Shown piece after piece: positions 34,895-59,936 of a DNA stretch of 64,000 bases. The DNA comes from Schmidtea nova (taxonomy: Eukaryota): the NCBI GenBank assembly GCA_044892505.1, contig CM097882.1, positions 247,380,001-247,444,000 on the forward strand, in the 5' to 3' direction. The notes beneath the pieces were generated by a model. The model worked only from the letters and a program-made list of their open reading frames with translations. It was not told the origin of the DNA and ran no database searches. Numbering within the stretch: the stretch's first letter is position 1; every line of letters starts with the position of its first letter. A program made the translations under genes and the position numbers.

Positions 34895-35421
34895 TGCTGG
34901 GATTATGGGTGGGTTTTACGTAATTCAAATAAACAATTAATCATACTAGGGATTCCGCGCCCATAACCATACATAACATGACTACTACACGCGTATGCCC
35001 TTGACTATTCCCCACTAGTCAAGTTGGTACTGCATACGGTGGTGGAAAAATGATGGGCAGGTGAGCTTTGTCGCCAAAACTACTCCCCATTTATCTTCCC
35101 TCGGGTTCTTGCTGCCGATAGAAGGTCTTACGCATTTACATTCTATGGATGTTCGTTTCCTACTGAATTTTATACTACATATCCCTATGATCTATCACAC
35201 GCTTTTCCCAATGACGCTCTCCCTCGCTGTTCTACAAGCCTACGAAAACTCTCGCTGCTAAGTAACGGTCGGTGTAGGTTTTACGATGCGATTTTTAGTT
35301 CTACGAATTACTTATGTAGTCTTATTTTATTTAGTGAAATCACACGATGAGAGAAAAAATTTACACAGTAATACTTTATTAAAATAATAAAGACAGGTTG
35401 TTATGTTACATGGAGATTTTC

Positions 35422-36006
35422 CTATTCAAACTCCAGGCTAATCTCCTGGATTAACTCTGCTTCGGTTAAGGAGTTCAGGTGGTGAATTTGTTCGTCCAGG
35501 CGCCTTGCAAATTCTCGGCGACGACGACGCTGTCGCGATCCCATTCGATGTTTTCGAAGCTGTGGGTTTATGGCCGGTGCTGACGCTATTGTTCTCGGGG
35601 GATCACTGGGAAAAATAGGCAAATCTTCCGTTGTAAGAGTGGGTGCCATGATGATTTCCTCTTCCGTCCCGCAAGCGACATCTTGGTGAGTGCATTGTAT
35701 CCAGCGCTGAGCCGTGATCGGCCGGATTAGCGCTCGTAATTCGGAGTCGATGTAACTTCTTGTTACTGCGTTCAGGCAATTTCGGAGTTCTCGCTGGACG
35801 GCATCTAATTCCAATTTGGTTGTAGCCAATGCTTCCTGCACTCGCTCGAGTTTTTTCGACTGGTCCTTCATCTGTTCGGGCGAGAACCACTTCGCTTTCA
35901 ATTCATCATTGGCGACCGTGAGTCGCTTGATCTGTCGCTGCTGGTCCCTCAGCTTTCTCTCTTGAATTTGTCCCATGATTTTCTTCGAATTTTCTGAAGT
36001 CGGCAT
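35422..36006 (-). CDS. LTR-encoded 194-aa coiled-coil protein with an Arg-rich motif (3' LTR copy)
   Basis: ORF track. N-terminal coiled coil; RKHRMGSRQRRRRREFARR. A diverged homolog lies at about 9.4-9.9 kb. Confidence 0.72.
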   Translation of the reverse strand: MPTSENSKKIMGQIQERKLRDQQRQIKRLTVANDELKAKWFSPEQMKDQSKKLERVQEALATTKLELDAVQRELRNCLNAVTRSYIDSELRALIRPITAQRWIQCTHQDVACGTEEEIIMAPTLTTEDLPIFPSDPPRTIASAPAINPQLRKHRMGSRQRRRRREFARRLDEQIHHLNSLTEAELIQEISLEFE

Positions 36007-36322
36007 GTTGTCTGAAGATTATAACGATAAATTCACTGGAGGGCCTATCAACAATGTTATTTTATTTAAACAACTATTATTATTATTAAACGAGATGTAT
36101 ATTAATGTTTTTAATTGTTGAGTTCTCTACAAAATTATTTAACTATCTAATCATTGAAGACTAAAAAGGTTTATTGAACTAATTTTATATTAATAAATGA
36201 ATTTCCTAATGACTATAACAACTACAATACTAAATCTACATGACAACACTATTAACAAAACGAACATTTCAGAATTCTTTAAAACATTTATTTAATTTAA
36301 AAACAGGCGGCCATTGATTCAG

Positions 36323-36799
36323 CTATTCATCCTCGGTCATTTTTCCTCGATACGAAAATACCGAGCGGATCTGCAAATTTGTATGGATTCCTGTGTTATT
36401 GGACGAGGCCTGCTGGAAACGGATTCTCTCAGCTTCTCGGAGGGGTCGGATGGCTGTATTGAACTTGAACCCCAATTCCTTGAAGGTAGAGGCTGGAATG
36501 AACCCCCAATAAATGACACATCTCGGGAATCCACCTTTGTCCAACATCATGATGAACCAGGCGGCGTGCCATGATTCGTATTCCTCGTCTGGAATGATTG
36601 GCCAACTAGCGCATCCCCGGTACCATACGTGGTGCCGTGGATGGTCCCATACTGTAAATGGACAGGCGGTTTCGAGCTCTCGGCGCCATGCCCACATCTT
36701 TTGATGGATTTGCTGTAAAATCTCGAAAGGAGCCGGCTTTAATGGGCTAACTCGGGCTCGTTCTTGTCGTTTTTTGATAGTGTATCTATGCTTAGCCAT
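36323..36799 (-). CDS. LTR-encoded 158-aa protein of unknown function (3' LTR copy)
   Basis: ATG-started ORF in a GC-elevated block with AT-rich flanks. Confidence 0.6.
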   Translation of the reverse strand: MAKHRYTIKKRQERARVSPLKPAPFEILQQIHQKMWAWRRELETACPFTVWDHPRHHVWYRGCASWPIIPDEEYESWHAAWFIMMLDKGGFPRCVIYWGFIPASTFKELGFKFNTAIRPLREAERIRFQQASSNNTGIHTNLQIRSVFSYRGKMTEDE

Positions 36800-38345
36800 G
36801 ATTCCAAAACGATGCTGAATTTTATAATAGTTACAATTTACATCAATAATTAATCATAGTAAATGTTATCTCTCATCGTGATTCCTCTATTATTTGCCTT
36901 CCCCTTAGACCTTAGCTGAAATCAAGAAAAAACTGTTGTTTGTTACAGTATGCATTACTCTCGTATCTACTTAGATTTATCTGTTTATGATCAATTTGAT
37001 AGACGAAAAAATGATGATTTGTCTGCTTGGATTTTCAAAATATTGGTACCTCAAAACGGAAACTCTCTCCCGTCATGTATCCCTAGTTTATTCGAAAAAA
37101 AAACGCTCTTTTGTACCAAACGCGGTCGACATAATTTTCCTAAGGTTTATTAGACGTTTATTAAACAGCGGCGCTATGGTGAGGGTGAAAAATTGTGCCT
37201 CCTCCCGGTTAACAACTTCTTTCATATCTTTAAGCTTTATCAAAAAATTCTCGTCCCCTCTGTAGCTAAAATGATCAGAAAATAATTTTCCGGATTTGTT
37301 GGGTGTCCCATGCGCAAGTCTCAACCACTACTGATAAAATTATGCTTTACTATTTATTACTTTACCGTGTGTGGAGCCCTCGAGCACCACGCCACGGACG
37401 GACACCTTGGGAACCTAAAGCTCCCAACGGCGCAAAATTAATATGATCATTATATATTTTAATGTTGAGTCCAATCACAATAACGTTTAATTCATATAAC
37501 AAATTTCAACACATGAATGCATAAACACATAAATAATTAGATCAATAGATAAATGACAAAGCAAATGACACAATCATGAATAAAATAATACAGAAACCAA
37601 AATACCTAATTCGTCTGGGTTTGCTTCGATCGGTTCGTCTAGAATTCAAAGTCTATTTGATTAGTGAGCTAAATTTTACACTCTCAACTGACGTTGTAAG
37701 ATTAGGTATTAAGTCTGTTTTATCCAAAGTCTGATCAGTATTTATACTGATCAGTCTGATCTAGACTGACCAATCGGATTTGGCCGATTTCATGGTGGGT
37801 TTTAATTATTGTTTTTGATTCTAATTAATTTTTATTTTTTTAGATTGTATTCTTCCTTGGAGGTCCGGGTTTCAAAAACAATTATTCAATAACAAGTACT
37901 TTTATTTGGTTTTAATTATTATTATTTGTATTTTATTTGTTTTTAGATGTCTCCTGGGCCCGTTAATATCTATAAATTCATTTATTTTTATTTATAGCTT
38001 GTACTTAGTTATTCTATATTTTTACTATATTATTCCTTTCTTTTAATAAATAAATATTCCCCTTTTTACCTTATTTTTCTCTTTTTTGTTTTAATTAATC
38101 TACTTTTATTTCATTTTTTTCTCTATTTGGCTGGCCCAACATCACTCGGGGACCCCTAAAATTGCGTCCCGCAATTAATTATACATTTACACCTATATCA
38201 TCATACATAAAAATTAAGCAGATAAATGTCAATTTACATATACACAAAGAATCACGTAAGGTGATAGATTTTATACGTAAGCACAAAGTCATATTATTGT
38301 TAAATGTAAGTGGATCATACATAAAGTGAATGTAATATATCAGTT

Positions 38346-38918
38346 TTACACAAGCTCTTTGATTTCATGATTGGTATTGGATTGGATAGGGGTTCTTTCG
38401 CTGATTGTTCGTAGTTCGTAGTGGCTTTGGATTCGGTTTAGGTGTTTTCTCATTCGCTTTTGGGTTCTGATGTCTTGTATTGTTGTTCGATTCAGGATGA
38501 CATGTTTTTGTTTTAAGATCTTCACTCGGTATGATGTTATGAGGATTGTGATCGCGATAATGGTCACGCTGAGTGCAAGGATTATTATAATTGCGATGAT
38601 CCATTTTTCTTGATATTCTATCTCTGCTTGGGCTAAGCTTTTTATGGGTTCTCGACCTTCTTTTAGGGTTTTTCTGATTGTTTTCAATTTGATTCGATGT
38701 TCATATAGGACCTGTTGAAATTTTTCATCGTTTGGGTTGTCTGATGTTATCTGTTGAAGTTGGGTGATTTCTTGTGTTGCTTCGCTGATTAGTTTATCTA
38801 GTTCTTGATAGGTTTTCTCGGGTAGGGCTCGTAGCTCCTTCTCTGTGAGTTGAAGATCTTCTCTTTGTAGGGTGATTGTTATTAGGTATAGGAATATCGG
38901 TATTCGGAGCTTTTTCAT
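38346..38918 (-). CDS. 190-aa predicted membrane protein (hydrophobic N-terminus, coiled coil, TM helix)
   Basis: N-terminus MKKLRIPIFLYLITITLQ; TM WIIAIIIILALSVTIIAITILITSY; basic tail. Confidence 0.75.
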   Translation of the reverse strand: MKKLRIPIFLYLITITLQREDLQLTEKELRALPEKTYQELDKLISEATQEITQLQQITSDNPNDEKFQQVLYEHRIKLKTIRKTLKEGREPIKSLAQAEIEYQEKWIIAIIIILALSVTIIAITILITSYRVKILKQKHVILNRTTIQDIRTQKRMRKHLNRIQSHYELRTISERTPIQSNTNHEIKELV

Positions 38919-39000
38919 ACTGTTTTCTTTACAGGTAGGTCAATACAATTTGATACTACATTTCATACAATTATTTACAAAAATATATTTTCCGCTTTAT

Positions 39001-40062
39001 TTACACAATCGTCTCGTTTGGTTCGTAGAAACCTTCGTCCTGAGGTTCTACCTGGTTCGTGGGGAGTGGTATCCAAACAACCCTGCTCCTCCACATTTCG
39101 ACTTCATCTCGATACATGTGAGATATCTGGATCTCCTCGTCCAGCAAATATTCTAGGTAATTTGCTTGTTCTGTTAATGTTTCTATTTGCTTCTCTAATT
39201 CGATTACTTTTGTCTTTTGTTCGTCTTCTTTCATCATTTTTGTTACGGCTGCCGTTGTACTTGTTTCTTTGGGTATTGCTAGTACTGTTACTCGTTTCTG
39301 TTTCAATTCTTCGTTTTCTTTCATCAAATTCGTTAAATTTTCCTCATAACTTTGCTTCGCTTCCTTTAACCTTTCTCTGGTTCTTTTTAGCTCTATTTTC
39401 TTCTGGGTAATCACTCCTTGATAACCATTTATATCTCTCTTCATCTCTTCTTCTTTCTGATTCCATATTCCGGTGAGCATAGATTTCAGTTGTTCTTGAT
39501 TAGCTAGTTCTTCTCCCATTCTTTGAACTTGATAGGTTAGTCCTTTAATTTTCTTTGCTTGTTCGCGGATAAATTGCTGTCTTTTTGTATTCCATCTTTT
39601 ATTTAACACTTCCTGGTTGATTTTTTGCTCTAACTCGTCTTTTAGTTCATCGATCTCTTTATATAACTTCCAATCATCACTATAATCTGTCCTTTCTATT
39701 ATTTCTCTAGCTTTTTCGTAAGATTCTTTCGCTTCTTTCTTCCAGTATCTTGCTTGTTCTGTAATCGAATACATCTTGTGTTCAGCTTCCATCTGCTGTC
39801 TGTCTCTTTCCTCTCGTCGCTCTTTCATCATTCTCTGGTAATATTCCTTTTGTTGTTGTAGCATTTTGTATACTTCTTCTATTTTTTCTCGACTTCTTTG
39901 ACTTGATCTTTCCGCTTCTTTTAATAATTCGGCTTGTCTCTCTATCTCCTCTTGCTTTCCATAATATGCATTGACCCATATTTCAATCTGTTCTAGATGA
40001 TCGCTAATCGCTTCTGCTTGATGCATCGTAATTTCCTGTAAGCATACTTCGATATTTCCCAT
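39001..40062 (-). CDS. 353-aa coiled-coil protein
   Basis: Long E/K/Q/R-rich heptad-like sequence; no catalytic motif recognised. Confidence 0.8.
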   Translation of the reverse strand: MGNIEVCLQEITMHQAEAISDHLEQIEIWVNAYYGKQEEIERQAELLKEAERSSQRSREKIEEVYKMLQQQKEYYQRMMKERREERDRQQMEAEHKMYSITEQARYWKKEAKESYEKAREIIERTDYSDDWKLYKEIDELKDELEQKINQEVLNKRWNTKRQQFIREQAKKIKGLTYQVQRMGEELANQEQLKSMLTGIWNQKEEEMKRDINGYQGVITQKKIELKRTRERLKEAKQSYEENLTNLMKENEELKQKRVTVLAIPKETSTTAAVTKMMKEDEQKTKVIELEKQIETLTEQANYLEYLLDEEIQISHMYRDEVEMWRSRVVWIPLPTNQVEPQDEGFYEPNETIV

Positions 40063-40178
40063 TGCTATAATTTCAAAAAAAAAATTTTTTAATCGGTTTA
40101 TATATCAGTTATTTTTTGTTTATATAATAATTTTTGGGTATTTAACTGTACATATTATTTACACGATCACTTCTCTTG

Positions 40179-41561
40179 TTACGTCAACCATTCTTTTCTA
40201 TCCGCTTTCTCATTCCTTTCCATTTCTATGTATAGGGTGTCTGCATATAATCGTTCCCATAGGCTTTCTTTCGTTATAAACATTGGTTCTCCCGCTGCTA
40301 ATCCACATTCTGTGGTTGGTTTCTCGCTCGTACTCGCATGTTTCTCTGTCTCAAAGAATTTTTCTACTGGTTTTGTTACATTTCTGATTCTAATGATGAC
40401 TCCTACTTTCAAGGGCCATTCTACTAGGTCGTCGTATTCTCCTTTACATAGCGAGAAAAATATTGACACATGTGTTCCTCGTCCTCTTCCGTCTCCATTT
40501 GGGTATAGCTTCAATCTCACTTTAGCTCCGTTTCTCCATAAATAAAATGGTGGGCTTATTACTGCTGTTTTCGTCATATTTCTGGCCTCTGTTAATTTGT
40601 TTCTAAAATCTGTCACTTTCCACACATAGGGTGCGATTGGTAACTTTTCCTCGGTATCCTGGGTGAGTTTGTTGTACTGGATTTTCATTCCTTTAGCCAA
40701 TTCTTCGATAGCTTTTATCTTTTCCTCCATCTTTTCTCGTGTTAGTTCGAATTGCTCTCTGGTTTCCAACAGTAGGTTTACCATTATCTTGTGTGACTCT
40801 ATTTCTCTTTCTAATTTTTTGATTGTTTGTTCGGTTTCTTTTGTTGCTTCGTTTGTCATTTCCGCATGCTTTAGCAATGCTTCCTCCAGATGTTGTTTCA
40901 TGGTTTTTTGCGTTCTTTTCTCCATACATCCCTGTTTGTTATAAGGACATTCCCTTGGTTTCTCCGTGCACACTTTCCAATGTTCTTGTAATTTTACTTC
41001 TACCGTTATCTCGCATTCGTTTGAACATATTCCTACATATTGTCTACATACTTTCTCCTCTTTTATATTCAGGTGTTCTTCTTCGATCTTTCTCCTCGTT
41101 TCTCGAGTTCCACAATATTCGCATAGACTTTCCTCTTCTTTACATTCATCTTTGTGCTGCTCTTTATTCTTTATAGTTATTTTTTGTTGGCATTTGTTAC
41201 ATTCAGTTCTCTTCTCTTCGCAGTTCTCCAGATGGTTCTCGAGATCGCGTATTTGTCCTTGCCATATACATGGTTGATTTATACATTCGGTTTTCGTGTT
41301 CATGATTTCTCTCTGAGTTGCTCTATCTGGTCCGGTTTCTTCGAATTTTATTTGACCTTCTTTGCATTCTGGACATTCTGGTGGTCTTTTCATACTTAAC
41401 TCGTGTATGCATTTGGTACATACTCTGCATCCGCATAGGGTTTGTCTTGGTTTCAATATTATGTTTTTACAATTTACACAAGTGAGTCTCAGACTCCATT
41501 TCCTGTTCTCGGCTCTCAAAATTTCGATTATCCGCTCTTCGGCTTTTCCTTCTGTATTCAT
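40179..41561 (-). CDS. TRAF: Full-length intronless TRAF-family protein (RING, TRAF zinc fingers, coiled coil, MATH/TRAF-C)
   Basis: RING CVNC..QTLCGCRVCTKC..CPEC. TRAF fingers such as CPYNKQGC..KQHL. MATH domain YVWKVTDF..SPPFY..KVRLKLYPNGDGRGRGTHVSIFF..GEYDDLVEWP. Confidence 0.95.
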   Translation of the reverse strand: MNTEGKAEERIIEILRAENRKWSLRLTCVNCKNIILKPRQTLCGCRVCTKCIHELSMKRPPECPECKEGQIKFEETGPDRATQREIMNTKTECINQPCIWQGQIRDLENHLENCEEKRTECNKCQQKITIKNKEQHKDECKEEESLCEYCGTRETRRKIEEEHLNIKEEKVCRQYVGICSNECEITVEVKLQEHWKVCTEKPRECPYNKQGCMEKRTQKTMKQHLEEALLKHAEMTNEATKETEQTIKKLEREIESHKIMVNLLLETREQFELTREKMEEKIKAIEELAKGMKIQYNKLTQDTEEKLPIAPYVWKVTDFRNKLTEARNMTKTAVISPPFYLWRNGAKVRLKLYPNGDGRGRGTHVSIFFSLCKGEYDDLVEWPLKVGVIIRIRNVTKPVEKFFETEKHASTSEKPTTECGLAAGEPMFITKESLWERLYADTLYIEMERNEKADRKEWLT

Positions 41562-41651
41562 TCTACAATGATATATACACTTGATTTGTTATCTATTTTT
41601 TGATTTTTCTTGTTTTTGTTTTACATATTTACAATTTTTCGCTTTATTTAT

Positions 41652-42008
41652 CTACGGCTCGTTTGTTGAATCTGGTTCTGGGTCGTTTTCTGATCTGTTT
41701 ATTGCCCAATTTGTCCATCCATCCTCTGCTTCTTCTGTCTCTCCCATTGTTAAACGGTCTATCTCTATTGCTTGTCTCTGATTTATGTCGCTCATCACTT
41801 GATTCTCTCTGGTAAGTTGCGTTATCAATCTCTGTTGCTCCTCGATTCTGTGGAGTTGTTCAAAACTATTATTATAACTTTCGGATAACAAATTCTGTTT
41901 CTCAATTAACTGATTTTGTAGTGAGTTGATTGTTCGTATTAACATGTCACACTGGGCTTTCCATCGCATAGCCATAGTAGTTTCTGCTATTTCTTCCTGT
42001 TCGTTCAT
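41652..42008 (-). CDS. 118-aa coiled-coil protein with an acidic tail
   Basis: ORF track; heptad pattern LIRTINSLQNQL..LTRENQ. Confidence 0.65.
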   Translation of the reverse strand: MNEQEEIAETTMAMRWKAQCDMLIRTINSLQNQLIEKQNLLSESYNNSFEQLHRIEEQQRLITQLTRENQVMSDINQRQAIEIDRLTMGETEEAEDGWTNWAINRSENDPEPDSTNEP

Positions 42009-42133
42009 TTTCTAAATTATATACATTAATCGTTTTCTCGATTTCTCTTTTTATATTTTTATAATATCGATACCCATACTATTACGGTAATGCATTGTTA
42101 TTTACACTATTATTTACAGTCATATCCCGCCTC

Positions 42134-43510
42134 CTATATCACCATCACTGTCTCTCCTTCGTATCGCTCTTCATCTTCTATTTGTCTCCAAAATTCTTTG
42201 CCTTTCGTCCTCCTTTGAAATTCTTTCTGTACTTCTTCCGGTAATTCTATACTGTAGTTCATAATCTTTATATCTGGCCAATGTGTTATTGGTTTCTTGT
42301 TGAATACATCATATATCCATATTATTAATAATACTGTTATTACTGGAATAGTTGCTGCTAGTATTCCCAGACCAATTAGTTCTCTAACTTGTTTGTTTAC
42401 GTCCATCTTCGTAATTTCACTCTGGTTAATCATTGGTCCGTATTGTCCCTTTAGTTTATTTAGTAGTTGTTCTCGTTCTTGTTGTTTTCTTTTAACTTCT
42501 TTAATTACTTCTTCCGGCGTCCATCTTGCGTAAGGGTCTATTACTACTTGTTCCGCGTCCATTTGTTTCGTTGTCTGACTTAATTCTTTAAATTCGAGTT
42601 TTCTCACTTTCCCTTTGGACGTTGAGTTTACCGGTGTGTAGTACGTTTCGCATCTTTCCTGCTGATTTCCTAATATGTCCGTCTTTTCTACCGCACATAT
42701 CTCGTATTCGCTATTGAATTTCAGATTTCTGATACTTATTTCCTCTTTTCCTTTCACGTTTCCACAGTCTCGTGGCTGTCTTTCCCTTTGTTTCTGAACT
42801 ATTACCCAACATATTTCTAACGTTTTATTGTCTATTCTCCATAGTATAAGAGTTGCTGTAGTATTCTTTTCGGTTCTTATTTGTATTTCTTGGTTTTTCT
42901 GTTGTCCATTAGGTTTAAAGGTAGTGGTATACCTCGTTTTTCCTTTGTTCCGTTGTCTTCTGCTTTTTCGCGTTGTCTTTCCAATTCTTGTTCTGGTGGG
43001 TGTTTTATATATTTTGCATTCCAGTTCATTTACTGTTATTTTGTCGCTCTTCCTGATCAGGCATATTTCGTACGTTTGATTACTTTCTAACCCTTCTATC
43101 TGTATTGTGGTTGTTCCTCTGTTTGTTCGACATTGCGGCGGTGTATTCTGGTTTGTTTTCTTTTCCTGCTTCTTCCAGCATACGCCTTTGACGTCCGGTT
43201 CCATTCCGGTTAACTCTAACATTATAGTTGTTCTCCGTTTGGTGCGTTTATTTCTTCTTCCTCGTCGTATGAACTTTATTGTTTCCCCAGGTTGAAATGT
43301 TTTACAAATTGTCGTTCCTTTCTTGTGTCTTTCTTTTTCTAGTAAACATAGTTCATACGTCCTGTCTGCTTTTACTTCTGATATCTTGGTTACTTTATTT
43401 GTTTTCCTTTTCCGACTCGTCTTTATTTCGCTTACGCCAATTTCTTCGTTGCTTCTGGCCCAACACTTTGGGTTGGTGTTTTGGGTGTCGTTCATCTCTG
43501 TTACTGCCAT
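42134..43510 (-). CDS. 458-aa membrane protein with three FN3-like repeats; in frame with the polyprotein
   Basis: Repeats ADRTYELCL..TICKT, GLESNQTYEICLI..ECKIYKTP and NLKFNSEYEICAV..RCETYYTP. TM LIGLGILAATIPVITVLLIIWIY. Confidence 0.8.
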   Translation of the reverse strand: MAVTEMNDTQNTNPKCWARSNEEIGVSEIKTSRKRKTNKVTKISEVKADRTYELCLLEKERHKKGTTICKTFQPGETIKFIRRGRRNKRTKRRTTIMLELTGMEPDVKGVCWKKQEKKTNQNTPPQCRTNRGTTTIQIEGLESNQTYEICLIRKSDKITVNELECKIYKTPTRTRIGKTTRKSRRQRNKGKTRYTTTFKPNGQQKNQEIQIRTEKNTTATLILWRIDNKTLEICWVIVQKQRERQPRDCGNVKGKEEISIRNLKFNSEYEICAVEKTDILGNQQERCETYYTPVNSTSKGKVRKLEFKELSQTTKQMDAEQVVIDPYARWTPEEVIKEVKRKQQEREQLLNKLKGQYGPMINQSEITKMDVNKQVRELIGLGILAATIPVITVLLIIWIYDVFNKKPITHWPDIKIMNYSIELPEEVQKEFQRRTKGKEFWRQIEDEERYEGETVMVI

Positions 43511-43543
43511 TGTGTCAATGTCTATCCCTTCTTCTAACCGTTT

Positions 43544-46500
43544 TCACATTGTTAATATGAGTGCTAAACATAGTAATTCTGCTTGGTAGGTCACTCTTTC
43601 AGTTTCATTTGTGGTTACTCTTACTTCGGGCCTGTCTATGGTAATTTGTATAGTTGGCGTTGTTCGTCTGTCTATTGTCTGATGTTTCTTGTTTTTTGTT
43701 CCTTGTGTCTCTGTTCTTCCACACTTTCTTACGACATAGTCTCCTTTGGATGACTGCTGTACTGTTATGGTTACTTTGGGTGTTAGGTAATTTGCACATG
43801 CAATTGTCTTATGTGATCTCGGATCCTTTGGTTTCCGAACGGTGCACATTCTGTACCAAGTATCTAGCTCTAAGTCATCGATCTCTATGATTTCTTGTTC
43901 ATATTCTGAGATCCTGCAATCCATTGGACTATTTTGTCCCGATATTTTGTCCTTTTTTGACCAACATACTCGTTCGATTCCTTTTGCGTTTCCAATTTGT
44001 ATTGTCGCTTTTTCTTCACATATCATTCCTTGAGTTGGACTAATTAAGGTCATGATTACCGTTAGTAATAATAGTTCTGGTTTAAAGAATGGGTTTATTG
44101 TTTGTTTGTAGCCTGTTCTTTTTACTTCGTTTTTATTTTTATAGTTGTTGTTTCTTTGTTTCCCAAATTCATTGTTCTTATCATTTTTCTCTGTGTCCCT
44201 TCCTTTCTCTTCACTGTCCTCTTTATCTGATAACTCATGATCCTCTGGATTTTCTCGAGTACTATCGTCGTCGTTTCCTGTATTGTCACCTCCCCTTTGG
44301 TCGTTGAAAATGTCGTCCTCGACATTAACTGCTTCTATCATTTTTTCATACGTTATGGTTGTGAGTATACTTGCTTCGTATTCTTGTGTTACTGCCTGCT
44401 TAGGTATTTCCTTATCGGTTAATTTACAATCTAGAATCTCTTTCTTGGCTTTTATCCAATTATTAAGGTACGTTTTCATTAGTTCTTTCCATTTGTCCGT
44501 ACGTTCTGTTTCCTTTGGGTTGTTTGTGAATCGTAAATCTTTTCTTCTCATGAAGATGTCTATTATCTTTGGCCATTTGTTTATTATTAATGCACACTTT
44601 ATATACAAATTTTGGCCTTGTTCCATGCACTCGTTGATCCTGAATGCTGGTTCATTGGTGTTTGGGTTCATCCAATTGAGTATTGCTTCAGTTAGTTCAG
44701 CGTTATGCATCATGGAATGTACGCTAGCTTTTTTAACTGTCCTTGTAAGGTATTCTATTTCCTCCTGATTTGTGATTGTTTTTATGAAATTTATCACCTC
44801 CCAATTGTGCGCTAACAACGCTACGTCTAGTATTGAGCTGTCTTTGTTAGTTCTTCCCATGAGTCCTGCACCTGCTTCGTACAGTTCCTGTAACACTCGG
44901 GTTTTTGTGTTCGCTCTTGCTGCGAATATCATGAGGGTATCTCCCTTTTTATCTTTCATGTTCATGTCACTTCCGCAATCTTGCATCAACCGTGCAATTT
45001 CGACTACCCTCCTATCTTTTCCTGCTCGTAAGGCTCTATGTATTGGCAATACTCCATTCTTTGTTAATAAGAAAGTCACTGGCATTTCTCTTTTTATGAT
45101 CATCATATCGTTTTCATTGTAAGTTCCTTCCGCATATGCGTGTACCTTTTCCACAATTGATCCGAGTATCTCCAGTGTATGTTTAGAATTCTCGAATTCT
45201 GGTAATAGTTCTTTTGCTTTGTCCTGTATCGCATCTAACCTTTCTTGATATGGTACCTCTGCGCTGAAAAGTGGTGTAAATTTCCTTTTGCTTTCTCTTT
45301 CCTTTCGACCTAGGAATTGTTTGCATTTTTCGGGGTGGTTTAATATGTCTACTAGTTTGTCATACTCTTCCTCCACCGTTTTGTACTTATCTTGAAAATT
45401 GGATATATCTTTGTAAGTTATCGACTTGGTTAGCGATTTTGCACACCATTCCCTAATTTTCCTGAATAATGCTTCTTTTTCGCTTTCGAATTTACACTCC
45501 TCTTTGTTTTTGGAAATTGTGATCTTTCTTCTGTCCAATAATATTAACAGTGTTTTCTGATCACAAACTAATTTTAATAGGAATTGAAATAACGCGTTTT
45601 GTCCTTTACTGTATACTTCGTTTATATTTAATACCCATGTATCATTTTCGGATCTTTTCCATTTTATTAGCTTGCGTATTGTTTTGCAGTTACCGATTTT
45701 TATTGCCTCCTTGATTATATCACCTTTGATCAGTTCGTCTATTTCCCAAGTGGCCTTCTCGATTATTTGTTTGAGCATTATCTGATTTGAGCTCCATATT
45801 GCGTGATTCAAGACTGTTTTGTTTTCTCTATCGCGTTCCGTCCAGTTGAAATCGGCATTTATCAAAAGGTCTATTATTGCTTTATCCGATTTGTAGATGG
45901 CTGCTACCATTAATGGTGTTTCTTGTTCGCTATTCCCAAAACCAAGGTGTTGGTTTGTTTCCTTAGCGATTTTTAGAAATTCTTTTACTCTCTCTACTTC
46001 TCCCCATTTTATGGCGTTATGTAATGCTGGTTGTCCTCCTATGTCTTCTAGTGAAAGTATTTCTGGAATCTTTTCCAGTAGTTCTGAAATGACTGGTTTT
46101 GTTGGTAGTCCCCTTGCGTAATCACTAATTATCGACTGAATATCTCTTAATATATCGTCTCTGACATGCCATTTTCCCATTATTTCTCTGGCTTTTAGTA
46201 CAATTTCCTTGTTTCTTTTTTCTCGTTGATTGTTCTCTGCTTCGGTACTTTCATTGGTTGCTCTGAGCATATTCATTCTGGCTGTCTGGGATCTGGTTAT
46301 TATTCGTTCTTCTGGCGCTGTGGTTATTGTCTTTGGTACTTTTTTACATCTGCATGTATTAACGTATATTGGTCGTATCAATGGTCGATTAACAAGTTTT
46401 ACCTTCACATTGTTTTCCTTTTTGTATATAACTTCGTAAGGGCCTTTTCCTGGTCTTTGTAGTTTTTTAACGGTTCCTGGTATTATTTCTGGGGTTTCTA

Positions 46501-49500
46501 TCATCACCCAATCTCCGGGTTTAAGATCATTTGTTTTAACATTTTTCTTTTGATCGTGTAGGTCCTTGTAACTTTCTTGATAAAACTTTATGTTTAGTTC
46601 TGCTGTCTTCCATATCTCTTGCATTCGTTCTTTGAATTTGGTGACGTAATCATCTTCCTCCATATATTGAGACAAAGGTGGTTGATATTCAAGATCTATT
46701 GGCATATTGCATTCCCTTCCATACATTAATTGAAATGGACTCAATTTTGTTGCTGCGTGTATCGACATTCGGTATGCCATTAGACATAGCTTTATGTACT
46801 CATCCCAATCTGTTTGGTGTTTGCTTACATAATTGGATAACATTCGAATCAATGTGCCGTTAAATCTTTCCGTTTGTCCATTAGTTTGCGGATGATATGG
46901 TGACGTTCGTAATTTGGCTATTCTGAAGTAATTTGTTACTTCATCTAGTATTTCGCTCATAAAATTTGTTCCTTGATCTGTTAGTATTTGTTTCGGGGTT
47001 CCGTATCGACAACATATTTCCTCTACTAAAATTCTTGCTACGGTCTTTGCTTTTTGATCCGGCATCGCAAATGCTTCAGGGAATTTAGTCAAATAATCCG
47101 TTATTACCAATATATATTGATTCCCGTTTAAACTTTCTGGCAATGGTCCTATTACATCCATCGCAATGGTAGTCATTGGTTCCGCTGGTATTGGCATGGG
47201 TTTTAAGGGATTTTTCCATTTCTTCCCACTATCCTTTCTTGTGGCACAAGTTAAACAGTTCTTTATCCATTCCTTTACGTCTTCGTCCATTGTTGGCCAA
47301 TAATATTTTTGTCTCATGCGATTTAATGTTTTCTTATCGGACATGTGTCCTCCCAACTTTCCGTCATGGTATTGAGTTATTATCTCTTTTCGTCTATTAC
47401 CTGGCAGACACATTAATCGTTTCTCTCCATCTCGTATTAATAACCATCCTTTTTCTATTGTGTATCGATGTTGGTATTTCCTCATGTGTTCCTTTAACTC
47501 TGCATTGTCTTTGAATACATCCATATTTCGTGAGCTTAGGAATTCTATGATGGGTCTTAGTTCTTTATCCTCTTGCTGATCTTTCTTTAACTCACTGAAA
47601 TCCAAATCCTCTGCTATCATTATGCATATTCTTTGCACTTCTGGGTCTGTTAGTTCTGGAAACGTTAATCTTGACATGCAATCTGCGTTGGCATTCGCTT
47701 TTCCTGATTTGAATTTTATATCTGGTGAATATTCTTGTAATTGCATCGCCCATCTCATTAATCTGCTGGATGTTTCCTTATGTTGTCCTAGCCATACAAG
47801 TGGTTGATGGTCTGTGGTTATGCATATGACGTGTCCCCATAATAGATATTTGAAGTGTTTTATTGCTAATATTATTGCCAATGCTTCTCTTTCCGTTACT
47901 GAATAATTCTTCTCGTGTTTCTTGAATGTTCTGCTATAATATCCGATTACCCGCTCTTTTCCCTCGTCATCATATTGTCCTAACACTGCTCCTGCTGCAT
48001 ATCCACTTGCGTCGGTTGCGAGTAAAAATGGCTTTTTGAAGTCCGGGTGAACCAATATTGGTGCAGTTATTAGCTTATCTCTCAATGTTTCAAAGGCTGT
48101 TTGTTGTTCGCTTCCCCATATGAACGATACGTCTTTCTTTACTAGCTCCTGGATTGGTTTTGCAATCCCTGCGTAATCCTTTATGAATTTTCTATAGTAA
48201 CCGCATAATCCGAGAAATTCTTGGATCTGCGTTATCGTCTTTGGTACTGGACATTCTTTTACTTTATCAATGTTTCTGGGATCTGGTTCCTTTCCTTTTG
48301 CGGACACAATATGTCCTAAGAATGTCACTTTCTCCTTTGCCCAATCGCATTTCGATGGTTTGAGCTTGAGTTTCCATTGTCTCAATCTAACAAATACATC
48401 TCTGATATCTTGGATGTGTTGTTCAAATGTGCTTGAGTAGATCAGTAGGTCGTCAATGTAAACCATGCATTGTTTTATGCCGTGGGTAACGAAATTCATA
48501 CATCTTTGAAATGATGCTGGCGCATTGGTTAGTCCGAATGGCATTTTCCTAAATTGGTACAAGTCTCTTCCGATAGTGAAAGCAGTTTTCTCTTTGTCTT
48601 CCTCCTTCATTTTAATTTGCCAGTATCCGCTTTTCAAATCCAATGATGTAAAATATGCCGCTCCTTGTAATGTCAATAACATCTCGTTGATGTCCGGTAA
48701 TGGGTAGGTATCCCTTTTTGTAACTGCATTTAATCTCCGATAATCGATACAAAATCGTTGTGTTCCGTCTTTCTTTTTCACCATTACAACTGGGAATTGC
48801 CACGGTGAGCAGCTTGGTTCAATTACTTCTGCGTCTAGCATTTTCTGTACCTCTGCTTCTGCTACTGATTTTTGCGCTTCAGCTAACTTGTATGGTCTTA
48901 ACGCAATAGGCGTTTCGTCTGTTAGGGGAATCGTATGTAGTGTGACGTCGCATGTCCCTAGATCTAAATCGGATGCTGCGAATATATCTTTATATTCTAT
49001 CAGTAATCTTTCTAGCTGCTTCTTTTGATCCTCATTTAATAGTTGGCTATCAATGTTCCAAGTGGGTTCCTCCTCTTTTACTCCTTCTTTTATTGGTATT
49101 TCGATATCCATCATTGGAGTTAGTTTACCTAGTCTTTCATTTTCATAAATTATTTTATCCTCTTCATCGAAATTTACTACAGTTATTGGGATTTCTCCGT
49201 TGTCATTCGCACTCACTAATCCCCTTGCCATTGGCAACGACTTTCTCTTTTCAAATCTTTTACTGGGTTCAAAAATCATGTCACCTTCTATTGTAGGGTC
49301 TATTTTTACGAAGCATATTTTCTCTCTCCGTGCTGGTACGATTATTTGTTTCGAACTTGTTACTTTTGCTTCTATTGCGCATATCTGTCCTGTCCTATCC
49401 TTTAATCTCATTGTTCCGAGGTCAATAACTATTTCTTTAAATAATGCTGGCATCAGATCCGTGCCTATAATGCATGGTACGCTCAGTGCTGGTATTACTG

Positions 49501-52500
49501 CTACGTACGTTTCGATTTCCGTGTTTTGATGTTTTATCTTTACCCACCATCTTCCGGCAACTTCTACTACTTCTTTACTGCATGCTATTACGTGAACGTT
49601 GGTTCTCTCAATATCCCGTCTTTGTTCTTGTGGTATCCATTTTATATCTATTGCTGAGATATTTGCTCCTGTATCAATCATCGCTTCAATTTCCCTTCCG
49701 TTAATTTCGATTGTTGTAGTTAATACTGGACCGGTGTTTGATGACATTACTGCAATTGTATGTGAGTCTCCTTGCGGATCTACGCTTCTGCACCGTCTCG
49801 TTCTATAGTCTTCTGGTATCATAGGATATATGTTTGTCATCGGCATCATTTGCATTGTATTTTGTCTCATCCCTGGTGTTGGTTCTTGGTACATGGTTGG
49901 TGGGGGTGCGTAACACTTCCACATTTCCGCTGGATTCTTTTCGACATACTGTGGTACTTGATTTTTAAATACTTGACCTCCTTCGTTATCATCATCATCG
50001 TCGTCACTGGAATCGTCTTGGGTTCTGTACCCTTTCATTCTTTCCCATAGTCCTTTTCTCTCTTTCTTTAGTTGTTGTCTTGCTTGCTCGTTATTCATTA
50101 TCTTTTTAAATTTTCGTCCCACCTCTTCATCGGTTCCTTTCATTTTTGCCAGTATTTTTAGGAGTCTCTTTATTCGGTGAATATCTTTTGAATGACCGTG
50201 TAATACCATTGTTTTAGCCAGAAATGGTAAGAATCCTACCACCAATTTCCAATTTACTTTCTTTTCTCTTTTATAGATGTCAAAACAGGCTAACATTTGC
50301 GTTATTATTACCCGTATTATTTGTATAATTAGTATAACACCAAGTATTCCTGCCATCATTTGTCCAAATATTAAAAATCTTCCCCACATCGCTTTCATCA
50401 TGTTTTCCGTTGCCTTCTTAAAGTGGGCTGGTGACAATAATAATTCGTAATTTGGTCCACCTTGGTAATTTGTTCCTCCTGTTATTGTTACAATACTGGA
50501 TAACACCGCTTCTCGTCTTGCCGGAAATAGTATGTTTTGTCTTGCTGCTTCTAAATCCTTTGCGCTATAGAATCCCATATTGCTTACGTCTACGTCTTTA
50601 AATTTTCGTCCTTTTGATAGTTGCATCAATTCAAATTCCCTTGGTGCTGGTACCTCTGTTCTTGACGGAAACATAACCCAATTTCCGTCTGGTTTTTGGT
50701 ATAGTGGTCCATATGCGTTGCTGCAATTGAAAGGGTTTGGTTCGAAACTTACTGGATTTATGATTCTTGTCACTGGTTGTACATATCTTACTTTCCCTTT
50801 ATATTCGATTTCTAGTTCGTTAGTACACTGACCTGGTTGTAGTTTTGTCATTGTCGCTACCTTCGCATTTGTCTTTTTACATATGTATACGTACATGACC
50901 TCTCCGACTACTCTTCCAAAATGACCTTCTCTTAATGGTAATAATGGCATTGCACTATCCGGGTTTGTGATTGCTACTGCTAATTTTGTCTTTAATATTT
51001 CCCTATTTAATATGCAATCGTTGTTTATTAAATCGTAATACACTTTTTGTAGTGACGCTTGTCCTCTATGGAATAGAAAATCCATTTTATTGTTCATGTA
51101 AAGGTGTAATTTAACATCGTTCGTGTGTACTTTGCGTTTCGCACTAGGTACTTCTTGTTTTGATACAAAAATGCCGGGGTAGTTGGTTTCCAACATGGCT
51201 ACTCCGCATTTCAAGGCTGTTTTTCCTTTTACAAACCTCATTCCGATATCTGCATCTGAGGTAATTAGTACCGTTGGTGTATTTCTCATTTTAATTTGTT
51301 TTTCTTGTGTTCGGGTTTCAATCTTTTTCTCTCCCCGTACTGTGTCTTGAAGTATTTTTCCTCTTGCTGCCTCGTCTTCTTCTTCCTCTTGGAAGGTTTT
51401 CCCTTGTATCTCATCGAATTCTGCTTCCTTTAACAGTTGTAGTTGACATTCCTTCCCTCGTATCTGGTAGGTTAGGGTTGACATACCAGTCTGACAAGTG
51501 TTTGACTCGATTTTGCACATAGGTAGAGTTTTCATTTCTCCCGTCGTTGGATCGAAGAATGCCTCGTACGTTTTTAGTTCCACTGTATACGTATCTATTA
51601 CCACTAGGTTTGTTGCTGCTACTCCGAATATTGGATATGTTGCTCCTTGGCAGTACCCTTCTCCTCCCGTAATAGCTCCTGCTACATAATATGTTTGTTG
51701 CAATATCACTCCCGTTTTTCCTCTTATCTTTACTCTATCTCTAGTCTCTACTTCTCCATGTTTAAATAATTTTTCACAGTCTTCTCCTTGCAGCATTACC
51801 GATTCTCTTTCCGTTCCTGGCATCACGATTGCTGAATAATGGCGGTGTCCACAATAAAAAGCAAATCTGGTTTTATAAACTTTGCATTCTCTGACCATTG
51901 TTCTTATCAGTTCAGCTTCCTGATATACGTGGTATAATTGTCTCTTTTTTAATGTTTTTAGCTCCGTTGGGGTTGCGTCTTTACATTGTTCTGTCCCTCG
52001 TAATGAGTATTTTTCACCTAATGCCATTTGATCACAATCGAATACTTCAAATGCTGTTGCTCCGTCAGTACTAATCATCCATATTAACATCATCATAATG
52101 ATAGAACTCAGGTTTAGTGATGATTTCCCGTTTCCTGTTCCCGACTTTTCCTTTTCCAATTCTCCCAATATCTCTTCGAATTTCTTTTTCATATTTTTGG
52201 CTTGGTTTTTCTTTTGGTTCGTTTTTGTGAATGTTTCCCATCCTCCTTTACTGATGATGTACGGTTCTATTTCTTTCTCTATAATTTTGGCTGTATTCTT
52301 TATATGTCTTTCAAGTGCTGTGGGTTTCAGTCGACCTCTACTCAGTGTCAGCAGATTGTAGATGGTGTATGCCATAGCTATTAAATATTTGTTATCCGTC
52401 TCTGCTCCTTCCGTTAACTTCTTTATCAACATCGTGGTTCCTTGCCAATCTAGGTGGTTTGACCTTGTCTTCTCTTTTATTAGTTCTGGTAGGATTGGTG

Positions 52501-55500
52501 CGATGGCGCTATGCAGTGATTTCGCCCTTTCGCTTATTTCATTTATTCTCCACCATTTCTTTAATTCCGGATCGATTATTGCCAGTATTTCCATTAACAT
52601 CTTTGATATCCATTCCTCGCCTTGGTATGTTTGTGTTGTTTCTTTTTCTTTCGTTACGGCTATTTTATTTAGTTTCTTTAGACACAAATCCCATTGATCC
52701 CGTCTTTTTTCCTCTCTTGATTTTATAACTACATTTGCTGGATCCATCTTGGGTCTACCTCTAGGTCGTTTATCCATTGTCGTGCCCGTTTCTACTAATC
52801 TTGTTTCTCGTCCAGTTTCTTCTGTGACGTCTCTTGGTTCATTGGCTCTTTCTTCTAACCATCTTTCCATTTCTTGTGTGAATTGTACGTTTTCTACATT
52901 TGCCCTCCTTGCTTCCTCTTCTGCTATTTCATTTACTTCTTCGATGATTATTTCTTGTTCAACTTCATCTTCGGTGTTGGTTACCGGTATTGCTGTTGGT
53001 AATTCCTGAATTCTTTCGAAAATATTATCATCTTTCTCTTTTGTTAGCTCTATTAACTCCTCTAACATATCATCGCTATCTGTAAAAATTTCGTCTACAT
53101 CGTATGGTTCTGGTGGTGTTCTTTCTCTTGTCTCTCTTGGTGTTGTTCTAGCTTGTTCTGAGCTTGTTCCTGGAGTCCTTACCGATTTCATTGGGCTCGG
53201 CGTACTCATACTTCCTTTTGGTTTCTTTTCCTCTTTCAATTTCAATGGTTGACCTGCTATTGCTGCTACTGTCAATGTATTTGCGATATCTAATTGCGCT
53301 GGCGTTATTCCAATTTCTAAGCTGTTATCTAATGATCGTCCTTGGTGTTGTAAATGGAATGGTGGTTCATATCTCAATTTCTTTTTAATGTCTCGAACTT
53401 TCTCCGCTATCCCTACCCAAAACTCTTCCTTTTCTTGGTTCGGATATACTATTCTTAGGTGTACTTTCTGTGGCGATTCCTGCGAGAATTCTTGGTTTCT
53501 CCATTTTTTAATTACGTGATCCAATTGTTCTGGACACCACTCGTTAACTCTTTTGTATTCGGCGATTGCTTTTGCTACTTTACGCAAGCATGTTATGTCT
53601 TCTCCATTAACTACGAAAAAATCTGCGAGACCTTTTACTACTTTTCTCTTGCCGTGCGCATTGGTTTTTAATATTTCGACAAATTCTTCCGTTTTTTGTT
53701 TTTCTCTTTCCAACCACATGGTTGTCGTTTCTGGTCCGTCTAAATCTGCTGGCATGGCTTTTCTTGTTACCATACAGACTCTTCCGGTTTCCGGTTTGTG
53801 ATCGTCTTCTATGCCTATTCCGTATTCCTCTTCGTATTCGCCTGCTTTTGGTTCCCAACATTTTCCTCGTTCGTTCCATTGTTTTTCTACAGGTGTTCGT
53901 AATCGTCTGTTGAGATTGAGTTCTTCTAATACATCTTCCCATTCTGGCCAAATCCGCCAATTTCGATAAATGTCTACTATTTGTTGTAATTTATGCACAA
54001 CTTCTTTTTGTCGTTCCCGTTCTCTTTTCTCATCCTTAGCAGTTTCTCTTGGTGTATCGTCCATTCTGATAACGTGGATGGTTTGGTGATTATCCCATAT
54101 ACCAATTTTATATAGCCGTCTTTCATCGTGATCCCATAATACATGTTCGTTGTATTTCATGATTATGTCATCTTCCCATTCTTCTTCTGGTTCTCTTTGT
54201 AATAGTGTCTCGTTGATGACATTTACTAATTCTTTTATGGTACAATCTGCTACCACTTCAATTTCTTTGGTATCCTCATTAGGTAACTCTACTGCAATTT
54301 TCAGATCTGTTATTTTCCCTTGTCTGAACATTGCTTTTCCCATTTTTGCAATTACTTTTCCGTATGAGATCTGTGACCATCTCGTGTGACTTGTGTCACG
54401 TATGCATTCGATACATCGTTTCAACTTTTCGTATTCGCTTCTCATTAACTCCTTTCTATGTTTTTTGATTTGTGGGATGATTTGTTCTATCATGGAATTT
54501 AGATTTCCTCGTAAGATTCGTCCTTTCTCATATTCTAACCGTGGTTTTATCTTCCTCTCGAAACACATATTTGCTTCTTTTGCTACTTCTTGTAGGTTCT
54601 CTTCTCTCTTATCATCGCATATCGATAATGTTGTCACCTCTCCTGGCCATATGCCTGTTTCTATCAAATGCGTCCTTTTCTTCACTAGTCCATTCTGTGA
54701 ATAGAGGAATTTGTTTTTATATGAACTCCCTAATCTGTCTTCCACCCATTGATAAATATCTTCCGTGAGTGGAGTTTTGATCCAAATCCTTGGCAAACAT
54801 GTTTTTATCTCTATTAGGATTATATATTCATGGAGTGGTTCTTTTAATAATTTTCCTACGTATTGGCTTAGTGTTTCTACTTCCCGGCCTGGTAACCACT
54901 CTTTATAGTTCATTTGTAATATTGCTCTCATGAATTTTCTATAGTGTTTCTTGTCAATGAATTCCTCATTATATATTACTTCTAGCGTATTATCTAATAA
55001 TTTCTGGATCTCGTCTTCTTTTACTTGAATAGTTTCTGGTGTCTTTACTACTTCTATCTTTTTGTCTTCAATTTCCGGTTCGTCTAGCATGTCCCCTGCT
55101 AGACTACTGACGTCACTATCCTCTTCATCGTCTGAAAAATTCTTTGCCTGGCCTCTCAACATGTTAATGTGTTTTATCTGGTTAATTTCACTTGGTGTAT
55201 TTTCCGTTGGTCTTGTTTCACTTTTAATAGCTTTTTGTGTTGATTCACTCTTGTCGTCTACTACTTCGACCTTTCTCAATTTTCGTTCTAACTCGTCTAT
55301 TTCTCCCAACCGTCTTCGTATCATTTTCCCTTTAAATATTCGACTGATTCGTGTTTCGTGACGCACTGGCGATGGAATTCCTTCTGGTTCTATTTCCTTG
55401 ATTACCATCACATTTCTTTTTGTCTCTACTACTCCCATGTTTTCCCATGTATCCGTTAGTTTCAATTTTACTTCTGGTGCACCTTCTATTTTTAGGAATG

Positions 55501-57523: not shown

Positions 57524-58077
57524 CGGGATTACTTTTGTATACTCAATTTTCCTGTCTTATCGTGTTCCGATTCTTTTCTTCCTTAGTTGATTGGTTTGGT
57601 TTGATTGATTTATCTAAAATACAAATGTCACTTCAACGATACTCTATTGTTATCGTTGCGCTTTTATTCCCTTTTTACGGGACTTCTCATTACTGGGTTT
57701 CTATTATTTTTCCCCATTCCCAGATTCCCCTTTATTTAAGTCTATTTAAATTATCTATATACTAGTCACAATTATCTATTTAGTCATAACAATTATCTAT
57801 CGGTTATTAAAATACATCAATTATTTTTCCCGCGGTCTCCCAATTTATTTGTCGTTCGAACGCTCTAATTCCCTGAGTCATTTGACTCGATTATTATTTT
57901 TTCATCTCTTTATCTTTCTCTCTGCTAGCCTCTAATTATTAATTCTGCCGGTCTTTCCGGTCAGCTCCTATTTCTCGATTCTACTTGCATGCATTATTTT
58001 AGGTCGCATAATCAGCTTTACTCGCATTTCTCTATTATCGGTGCGCACTATTCTCATTATCGTCGACGATCACAACT

Positions 58078-58697
58078 CTGGGCCTATATTCCCTCTGTTG
58101 TTATTTCTTATCACTTGCAACCCTGGGCCTATATTCCCTCCGTTGCTACTCAAACGATTGTAACCCTGGGCTTATATTCCCTCCGTTACTATCTTCCTTT
58201 AATTTTAAATAATTGCAACCCTGGGCCTATATTCCCTCCGTTGCTACTCAACAATTGTAACCCTGGGCCTATATTCCCTCCGTTACTATATATCCGGATA
58301 TCCCTATTGGCTCCTTTGGCCTCTAATTAATATCAATTATCTCAAATGGCTCTTATGGCCTCAAATTCATATCTCAATTATCTTAAATGGCTCTATTGGC
58401 CTTAAATTCATATCTCAATTATCTCAAATGGCTCTATTGGCCTTAAATTCATATCTCAATTATCTCAAATGGCTCTATTGGCCTTAAATCATATCTCTCA
58501 ATAACGCCTAGCTAGGTCATTCAATATGGCTCTTTGGCCTCAACCCTTTGTTTCAAGGGACAAACCGCTGATAACCCTTTGTTTCAAGGGACAACCTCTA
58601 ATAACCCTTTGTTTCAAGGGACAAACCGCTGATAACCCTTTGTTTCAAGGGACAAATTCTAATAACCCTTTGTTTCAAGGGACAAACCGCTGATAAC
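58078..58697. repeat. Three adjacent tandem arrays upstream of gag
   Basis: 5x CTGGGCCTATATTCCCTCCGTT core (58078-58290); about 4x 41-bp TCTCAAATGGCTCTATTGGCCTTAAA (58310-58490); 5x CCCTTTGTTTCAAGGG at 58544, 58575, 58605, 58636 and 58666. Confidence 0.92.
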
Positions 58698-59633: not shown

Positions 59634-59936
59634 TTCCTAGATAATTTATTTAATTACTGTGTTAATATTATTCGAAAAGTAGTACTGTGTTTCGTTTTCG
59701 ACAGTTTATAGCCTCCCCCCGTGTTTCGGTAAATTGTCGTCCCGACCTGTTATTTATGAATGCATTTGTTCAATTTATCTACTAATTTGTTTTAATTCTC
59801 TGTTTGTAATTATCTATTTCCACGCAACTCACTTTTATCTCGATTACTCTTTCGGTTACTATTTCTACTCACAAAATTCTTATTTTAAATTTCTCTGTTG
59901 TCATTGGGTTCGCATTTTCGCATAAAAACAAAGTTG

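Follow-up and report, generated by a model that had tools for sequence, protein, structure and literature searches.

A giant Burro-like long terminal repeat (LTR) retrotransposon occupies positions 34895..63207, on the minus strand, of the 64,000-nucleotide (nt) stretch of Schmidtea nova DNA analysed here (the window; contig CM097882.1 of assembly GCA_044892505.1, positions 247,380,001 to 247,444,000), and each of the short spacers in its 3' train of accessory open reading frames (ORFs) appears to be a conserved junction made of two parts: TGTA(A/T)A 15-22 nt past the stop codon of one ORF, and a YAG just before the ATG of the next. The reading preferred here, to which we give a probability of roughly 0.4, is that the YAG probably serves as a splice acceptor and the TGTA word probably as a Pumilio site acting at translation termination, on leader-spliced subgenomic RNAs with long tails. 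The first motif in a spacer is mostly a perfect TGTAHATA, the form taken as the motif in what follows, and is usually paired.

Eight minus-strand matches to TGTAHATA, reported in an earlier sequence-only reading of this DNA, stand exactly where that reading placed them, at 42111, 42099, 42018, 41626, 41572, 40156, 38998 and 38972. All eight have the strand sense of the ORFs. Seven lie inside the window's four spacers, S1-S4, which measure 125, 90, 116 and 82 nt (413 nt in total, in agreement with the range of 82-125 nt given before), and the eighth, at 38998-39005, overlaps the stop codon of the ORF of 353 amino acids (aa); by location, five are stop-proximal, two lie just before the acceptor-like YAG and one lies over the stop. 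S1 (42009..42133) has TGTAAATA at +16 (42111-42118) and +28 (42099-42106) from the stop, TGTATATA at 42018-42025 and its YAG at 42012-42014; S2 (41562..41651) has TGTAAATA at +19 (41626-41633), TGTAAA at +27, TGTATATA at 41572-41579 and YAG at 41563-41565. In S3 (40063..40178) TGTAAATA is found at +16 (40156-40163), a further TGTA at +27 and YAG at 40065-40067, while S4 (38919..39000) carries TGTAAATA at +22 (38972-38979), the copy over the stop and YAG at 38920-38922. Dinucleotide shuffles of the four spacers gave a mean of 0.35 matches, which bears out the earlier expectation of well under one in about 410 nt, and the enrichment test that had been proposed came out clearly, the observed 8 being reached in 0/10,000 shuffles; over 1,000 spacer shuffles no gapped 8-mer, of whatever kind, was counted more than 6 times. 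The ORFs of the element, some 18 kb, contain a single sense-strand TGTAHATA, and the window as a whole is about twofold rich in the word (31 vs 14.3 expected), far below the enrichment in the spacers. AATAAAGCG follows two of the stops, as had been noticed; AATAAA itself is not enriched in the four spacers (2 observed vs 3.97 expected). The region read contains no N.

The same train is kept in two further families of elements in this genome, B (61-78% protein identity to the window's family A) and C (34-54%, found through its MATH domain), and a fourth, family D, was found later through a BIR domain. Family D is about 22 kb long, with a primer site as in A, a protease-ankyrin remnant and a train of seven ORFs that are 30-38% identical to those of A. 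Together the four families, at protein identities of 30-78%, offer 19 train spacers of 73-268 nt, with one copy per family entering the cross-family alignments and pooled tallies. In families A-C all 12 spacers have their first TGTA beginning 15-22 nt beyond the stop, and this range of +15..+22 was noted before family D came to light. Six of the seven family D spacers then fitted it, at +15..+17; among them are spacers as long as 221 and 268 nt and those that follow two genes absent from the A-C trains, one BIR-RING and one of 191 aa. Pooled over A-D, TGTAWA stands at +15..+22 in 18/19 spacers, with a perfect TGTAHATA in 16/19; spacers C4 and D5 have the core TGTA(A/T)A only, and this core is better kept than the last two bases of the Pumilio response element (PRE). 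No TGTA starts at +1..+14 in any of the 19. From the stop to the first TGTAWA the mean distance is 17.2 nt with a standard deviation (SD) of 2.0, and from there to the next ATG it is 53-254 nt with an SD of 51. The letters between stop and motif have turned over between families and the distance has stayed constant. A rotation test, in which motifs were kept and moved, gave P values of 0.0004 (A), 0.00125 (C) and 5e-5 (D), all of them optimistic since homologous spacers are not independent. The constancy of the distance to the stop, amid changing neighbours and spacer lengths, points to a step that senses the stop codon, that is, translation termination. The paired TGTA words lie 7-13 nt apart, and base 5 is A in 28/36 of the stop-proximal ones.

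Other stop codons look different. The motif is found at +15..+22 after 0/16 other ORFs of the four families -- the last train ORF, the two LTR ORFs and the 5' RING-type ORF of each, one of them perhaps no gene -- whose flanks are U-richer than the train spacers (T 0.38 vs 0.27), so that among element ORFs it occurs only where another ORF follows. Among host genes it was seen at 1/22 stops of G-protein-coupled receptor (GPCR) genes and 0/20 stops of TRAF genes (1/42 overall). For the former, 22 of 30 loci were kept, eight being dropped for a partial profile match or internal stops, and the first in-frame stop after the domain was used; the 20 TRAF loci were picked from clustered MATH matches.

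Conservation across copies, another check suggested by the sequence-only reading, likewise sets the motif well above neighbouring and synonymous sites. The TRAF ORF of the train has 92 matches in its own genome, 87 at 86-100% and five at 78-79%. Across 29 near-identical copies, seven of the window's motifs are never lost and the eighth is intact in 28, though such young copies say little about selection. Comparison of A with B shows identity at 59/64 motif positions, 261/366 other spacer positions and 119/193 fourfold sites; for A against C the figures are 58/64, 194/366 and 54/108. These alignments, of spacers that are partly homologous among the four families, indicate that TGTAHATA is under selection. 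The motif over the stop in S4 (38998-39005) is not TGTAHATA in the aligned B and C copies.

At the other end of the junction, YAG ends 1-7 nt upstream of the next ATG in 17/19 spacers; for a close YAG in all four window spacers the chance P is 0.00085, and in copies of the TRAF start the A of the AG is kept in 89/89. The 3' end of S1 resembles a host intron end seen in enolase (at two host enolase loci, no gene lies in the roughly 950 nt before the start). Upstream AUGs are present in 18/19 spacers, which disfavours ribosome scanning through them. A candidate partner for these acceptors lies in the LTR, where families A, B and C share a CCAAT-type box and a TATA box (62806..62812 in the window, minus strand), a putative promoter, followed by an AUG-free stretch, a donor-like site and a U-run. 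In the window the leader is AUG-free for about 110 nt up to the donor-like site at 62666..62671 (minus strand, its edge at 62671), which we infer to be the common 5' splice donor; a U-rich tract follows it, and a second copy stands at 37605 in the 3' LTR. Among 20 LTR copies the donor pattern occurs within 200 nt in 12 and, with AUG-free sequence before it, at 207-282 nt in three more, the remaining five having only a looser GTAAAT; a single leader would be AUG-free by chance in 13-17% of shuffles. Flatworm spliced leaders are described as ending in AUG (PMC12582326), and the gap from YAG to ATG is a multiple of three in 5/17 spacers, so there is no frame bias towards such an AUG. Four sequencing runs gave even coverage of the stretch, with loose ends at the flanks and LTR ends and no joints at the acceptors among the rows listed (524 further loose ends were recorded); these runs look like DNA and so weigh neither way. 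A probe for a spliced genomic copy at an LTR site suggested by one read joint found 0 matches, this probe having no control. Three other candidates were set aside: families B and C do not retain the GTGAGT donors that lie close behind the primer site (59872, 59832), the LTR site TGCGTAAG reads ATAAG in other copies, and a deletion in the family C copy L068, considered as a trace of splicing, is joined by an 18-nt overlap inside TRAF and not at a splice site. That deletion, in L067/L068, is in frame and fuses the env-protease region to the MATH domain of TRAF.

The genome has one clear Pumilio locus, with eight repeats whose triplets read SRQ, NYQ, CRQ, NHQ, CRQ, NYQ, SNE and NYQ. This is the canonical triplet code of the PUF family. 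The Pumilio consensus is given as UGUANAUA (PMC11182014), and UGUANAUA occurs in the spacers on the sense strand, 3' of stops, so the proposal that host Pumilio could read the window's motif is supported. Burro RNA is reported to be expressed and PIWI-controlled, its level rising after piwi knock-down (PMC8532177). A paper on TGTAAATA (PMC3192847) deals with engineered sites, and the literature listings and abstracts covered gave no description of these spacer motifs or of the expression of Burro accessory ORFs.

Taken together, the preferred reading would run as follows. A single LTR promoter would give one long RNA, from which the AUG-free leader exon would be spliced in cis to one acceptor per message; this would remove the upstream AUGs and make a single accessory ORF the first. 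The leader-spliced messages likely extend to the distal poly(A) site and so have long tails, because the internal spacers are A-rich and full-length genomic RNA must pass through them. A terminating ribosome reaches about 15 nt past the stop, and host Pumilio would dock just outside this footprint and set the fate of each message. Closeness to the stop might shield the message from the decay that acts on long 3' untranslated regions (3'UTRs), much as the stability element RSE does for Rous sarcoma virus; the alternative outcome would be plain Pumilio repression or dosing. Carried further, the junction might be a reusable module. Pumilio would be placed against the terminating ribosome and, from a classic repressor, become a shield or switch acting on subgenomic mRNAs with long tails, and new genes (TRAF, IAP, membrane proteins) could be slotted in cassette by cassette. 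This would be a PUF-based counterpart of RSE with a strict distance from stop to site, a broader idea that is doubtful.

Several observations weigh against this reading, besides the shared ancestry of the spacers. Spacer D7 has no motif, D7 and B4 have no close YAG, and two of the window's eight motifs are near the acceptor, where anchoring to the stop does not explain them. At base 7 many second sites of pairs differ from the PRE (T is present in 20/36 stop-proximal TGTA words), and these departures fit a reader of UGUA(A) as well. A hexamer, AATAAA or ATTAAA, is present no more than 75 nt from 12/19 internal stops (vs 8/16 other stops), and in 5/19 spacers the 8-mer continues directly into AATAAA, making internal poly(A) sites possible. 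The 5' RING ORFs would be long-tailed too, yet have no motif, and AATAAA is at or near their stop. At TRAF, the one train acceptor that was probed, a search for a spliced genomic copy gave 0 matches, against 89 for the control, and no copy of a spliced RNA was seen among the 20 LTR copies scanned. The published account of Pumilio is that of a repressor (PMC11182014), and no literature was found on Pumilio shielding messages from decay or needing a fixed distance from the stop.

A rival reading is a true operon. Each spacer would then contain the signals for 3'-end formation, with paired UGUA as upstream elements, an A-rich stretch as poly(A) signal and the second block of TGTA as the downstream element, and the host spliced leader would be added in trans at the YAG, as in nematode SL2 operons. 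The CFIm25 dimer fits paired UGUA with A at base 5, and the pairs 7-13 nt apart and the 28/36 words with A at that base suit it. The restriction of the motif to places where another ORF follows also speaks for an operon. The same-strand genes lie within about 300 nt of each other with an acceptor-like AG before the downstream ATG, at 73-268 nt the spacers agree with the distance of about 100 nt between flatworm cistrons (PMC12582326; PMC8629364), trans-splicing is known in planarians (PMC10899757) and Cer1 of C. elegans is reported to yield SL1-spliced RNA (PMC3315495). We nevertheless consider an operon somewhat unlikely. No reason is known why a nuclear processing signal should keep to 15-22 nt from the stop even in spacers of 221-268 nt, AATAAA is not enriched in the window's spacers, and for S. 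mediterranea it is reported that UGUA shows no enrichment ahead of poly(A) signals and that CFIm59/68 were not found (PMC5068929). These three points also weaken the CFIm-type 3'-end formation proposed by the sequence-only reading, whose wider suggestion of an RNA-level signal in each cassette holds up in that the motif is sense-only, conserved and apparently readable by host Pumilio. In addition, genomic RNA would be taxed by four to seven working internal poly(A) sites, a conserved donor-like site is present in cis, and the YAG-ATG gaps show no bias to the frame of the leader's terminal AUG. Splicing as in the preferred reading could also be combined with a different reader of the motif, a host UGUA-binding factor or a protein of the element, serving termination, ribosome recycling, export or packaging. 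The better preservation of the core over the last two PRE bases, with C4 and D5 as core-only spacers, would suit this, and several element proteins belong to no known family; against it stand the perfect TGTAHATA at the first site in 16/19 spacers and the matching code of host Pumilio, and export or packaging would have no need of a stop anchor. This combination seems unlikely.

If the train were instead translated from one unspliced polycistronic RNA by termination and reinitiation, the motif serving to retain the ribosome beyond the stop, the fixed stop distance and the presence of a following ORF would find an explanation. The upstream AUGs in 18/19 spacers and the close YAG in 17/19 speak against it, known reinitiation signals sit upstream of the stop, and the spacers have no structure in common: RNA folding was no better than in shuffles for 5/6 spacers (S3 had z -2.3), an Rfam search returned nothing real, and a small hairpin in S1, CCGTA-N4-TATGG, can be made out by eye in families A, B and C but is not what the folding predicts as the minimum. 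Reinitiation is thus quite improbable. The spacers could also be small internal promoters with forkhead sites and TATA-like boxes, since GTAAATA matches the forkhead consensus RTAAAYA and S1 has a TATAAAA about 55 nt before the ATG that is kept in A, B and C. All sites, however, have one orientation, their distance is fixed to the upstream stop and not to the downstream gene (SD 2 vs 51 nt), the TGTATATA variants, with their change at the fifth base, break the forkhead core, and S2-S4 have no consistent TATA; internal promoters are accordingly very improbable, and the forkhead sites of the sequence-only reading are disfavoured. Least probable of all is passive carry-over, in which the motifs would remain from host 3'UTRs that were captured or from a single junction that was duplicated. 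The spacers of the families are indeed partly homologous, and two near-duplicate host TRAF-like genes do have TGTAAATA at +12, but the motif is 91% identical where neighbouring and fourfold sites are about 50% identical, which largely refutes the idea; the turnover of letters at a constant distance and the rarity of the motif behind host genes (1/42) also oppose it.

The element as a whole is 28,313 nt long, with TG..CA ends and a 4-nt target-site duplication. Its 5' LTR (59961..63207) and 3' LTR (34895..38141) are identical, 3,247 nt each, and contain two ORFs of 158 and 194 aa. These LTR ORFs, at 60488-61865 and 35422-36799, are downstream of the putative promoter, and each has an acceptor-like AG before its ATG and AATAAA after its stop. 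Roughly the final 240 nt of the LTR (59961-60200 and 34895-35135; copies L104, L105, L107-L109) are conserved across families A-C and might be a structured RNA element, with no match in Rfam, and the LTR interior with its two ORFs diverges widely, even inside family B. A primer-binding-site-like 18-mer at 59937..59954, presumably of the tRNA-Pro type, is common to families B, C and D; no tRNA gene was found in the window. It is followed by a 5' accessory ORF of 153 aa with a RING finger (59172..59633), behind which there is no stop-anchored motif, and by a leader between this ORF and gag that includes three tandem arrays (58056-58724), with units of about 31, 41 and 42-55 nt.

The polyprotein, 4,517 aa in this copy (43544..57097), shows Pfam matches in the order zinc knuckle, fusion glycoprotein PF24664, protease, reverse transcriptase (RT), RNase H, integrase and ankyrin repeats. 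The PF24664 match (E 9.6e-69, residues 1935-2276) is in frame between zinc knuckle and protease. No Pfam match to the BCL2-like or ubiquitin-like segments of Burro polyproteins was obtained in three fragments from the window, and family D gave a weak Rad60-SLD match (E 0.018). Smaller gag-env-pol families (L044, L050, L056, L059) encode a polyprotein of about 3,350 aa, also with PF24664 in frame, which places env between gag and pol outside the giant elements as well; they have one 3' ORF of 468-482 aa behind a spacer of about 400 nt with an acceptor-like end and no TGTAHATA.

The window's polyprotein ends at a stop that is missing from other copies, and the 458-aa ORF beyond it (42134..43510) is its tail, the frame being open through the junction in 13/13 other copies; judged from these copies, it is not a separate gene but has been cut off by a premature stop. 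The operon-like gene train of the sequence-only reading thus survives as four ORFs with short spacers, of 118, 460, 353 and 190 aa, and loses what had been taken as its first gene. ORF 1 (118 aa, 41652..42008) has no confident family. ORF 2 (460 aa, 40179..41561) is TRAF-like, with zf-TRAF and MATH domains, and its homologues are TRAFs at 23-48% only. The two host TRAF-like genes mentioned above (L079 and L081, G000:C2:452.97-452.99 Mb) lie in long open frames, with a second TGTAAA after the TGTAAATA, and are possible donors or descendants of the element's TRAF. ORF 3 (353 aa, 39001..40062) looks coiled-coil-like by inspection, with no Pfam family and no homologue in a search; ORF 4 (190 aa, 38346..38918) has, by inspection, a hydrophobic N-terminus and one membrane-like segment, has no Atlas match, and is followed by a U-rich flank without the stop-anchored motif. 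All of these features are on the minus strand.

Family D (L130/L131, L176, L179; G000:C1:119.239-119.260 Mb and 253.26-253.29 Mb) has a high copy number, LTRs of 4-5 kb and a cargo of seven intact accessory ORFs (TRAF, BIR-RING, coiled coils); with no RT, integrase or env match found in it, it looks non-autonomous and yet cargo-preserving. Elsewhere in the genome about 45 scattered fragments of the enolase N-terminal domain share a common internal gap and are probably carried by a mobile element. Outside the element, the window has a duplication spaced 1,131 nt (11573-14476) with ORFs of 300 and 375 aa, and a pair of ORFs of 205 and 213 aa (25482-26883), perhaps another gene-bearing solo LTR.

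The sequence-only reading had overlooked that this is a retrotransposon, that an acceptor-like AG precedes each ATG and that the stop distance is fixed. The element is of an already known type, and the function of its stop-anchored junction module is put forward here from sequence. The literature covered does not say how the four to seven accessory genes of a giant retrotransposon are expressed from a single LTR; since the junction follows a rule that can be measured (motif at +15..+22, acceptor 1-7 nt upstream of the ATG), the question can be tested directly. Should Pumilio act there, the most abundant planarian-type retroelements would be tied to a conserved stem-cell RNA regulator, and a PUF function would depend on distance from the stop; should the operon be right, a retroelement would be resolving a multi-gene operon by means of the host spliced leader.

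Among known systems, the nearest in layout are the Burro/GYPSM1 giant Ty3/gypsy elements of planarians (PMC6431247), and from their description the window's element is of that kind, as set by layout and by Pfam matches to protease, RT, RNase H and integrase in gypsy order. Both have a huge single polyprotein in which an env-like fusion glycoprotein separates gag from protease, LTRs of several kb, a high copy number and a cargo of ankyrin repeats, TRAF/MATH, BIR or RING and coiled coils, of which ankyrin, MATH, zf-TRAF and RING were found in the window and BIR in family D. At 28.3 kb, compared with > 30 kb for Burro, it is Burro-like but outside Burro1-4 on length, and its TRAF is a separate ORF of the 3' train, where that of Burro is described as lying in the polyprotein or upstream. 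The junction itself recalls RSE of Rous sarcoma virus, which with PTBP1 is reported to give stop-proximal protection that depends on closeness to the stop (PMC4764554); both are RNA elements of retroviral type directly behind an internal stop codon, but RSE is described as 400 nt, CU-rich and present once per genome, whereas here a pair of PUF-type 8-mers lies 15-22 nt behind each internal stop and its protective role is putative. With the PRE, UGUANAUA, the motif shares sequence, sense orientation, clustering, a place behind the stop and a host protein of canonical code; PREs are described as repressing from anywhere in the 3'UTR, a fixed stop distance being outside their definition. Human immunodeficiency virus, the foamy viruses and the adenovirus late unit all splice one leader to many acceptors, and the AUG-free leader, the one donor-like site and the weak acceptor-like AG before each ORF are much like theirs, except that the donor-like site here is up to 20 kb from the acceptors and the splicing is inferred; we know of no repeated stop-anchored motif in those viruses. 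Finally, the same-strand gaps of about 100 nt with an acceptor just before the ATG resemble those described for the spliced leader-resolved operons of nematodes and flatworms, and for Cer1, but here they lie inside a retroelement that needs its full-length RNA and that has a donor-like site of its own in cis.

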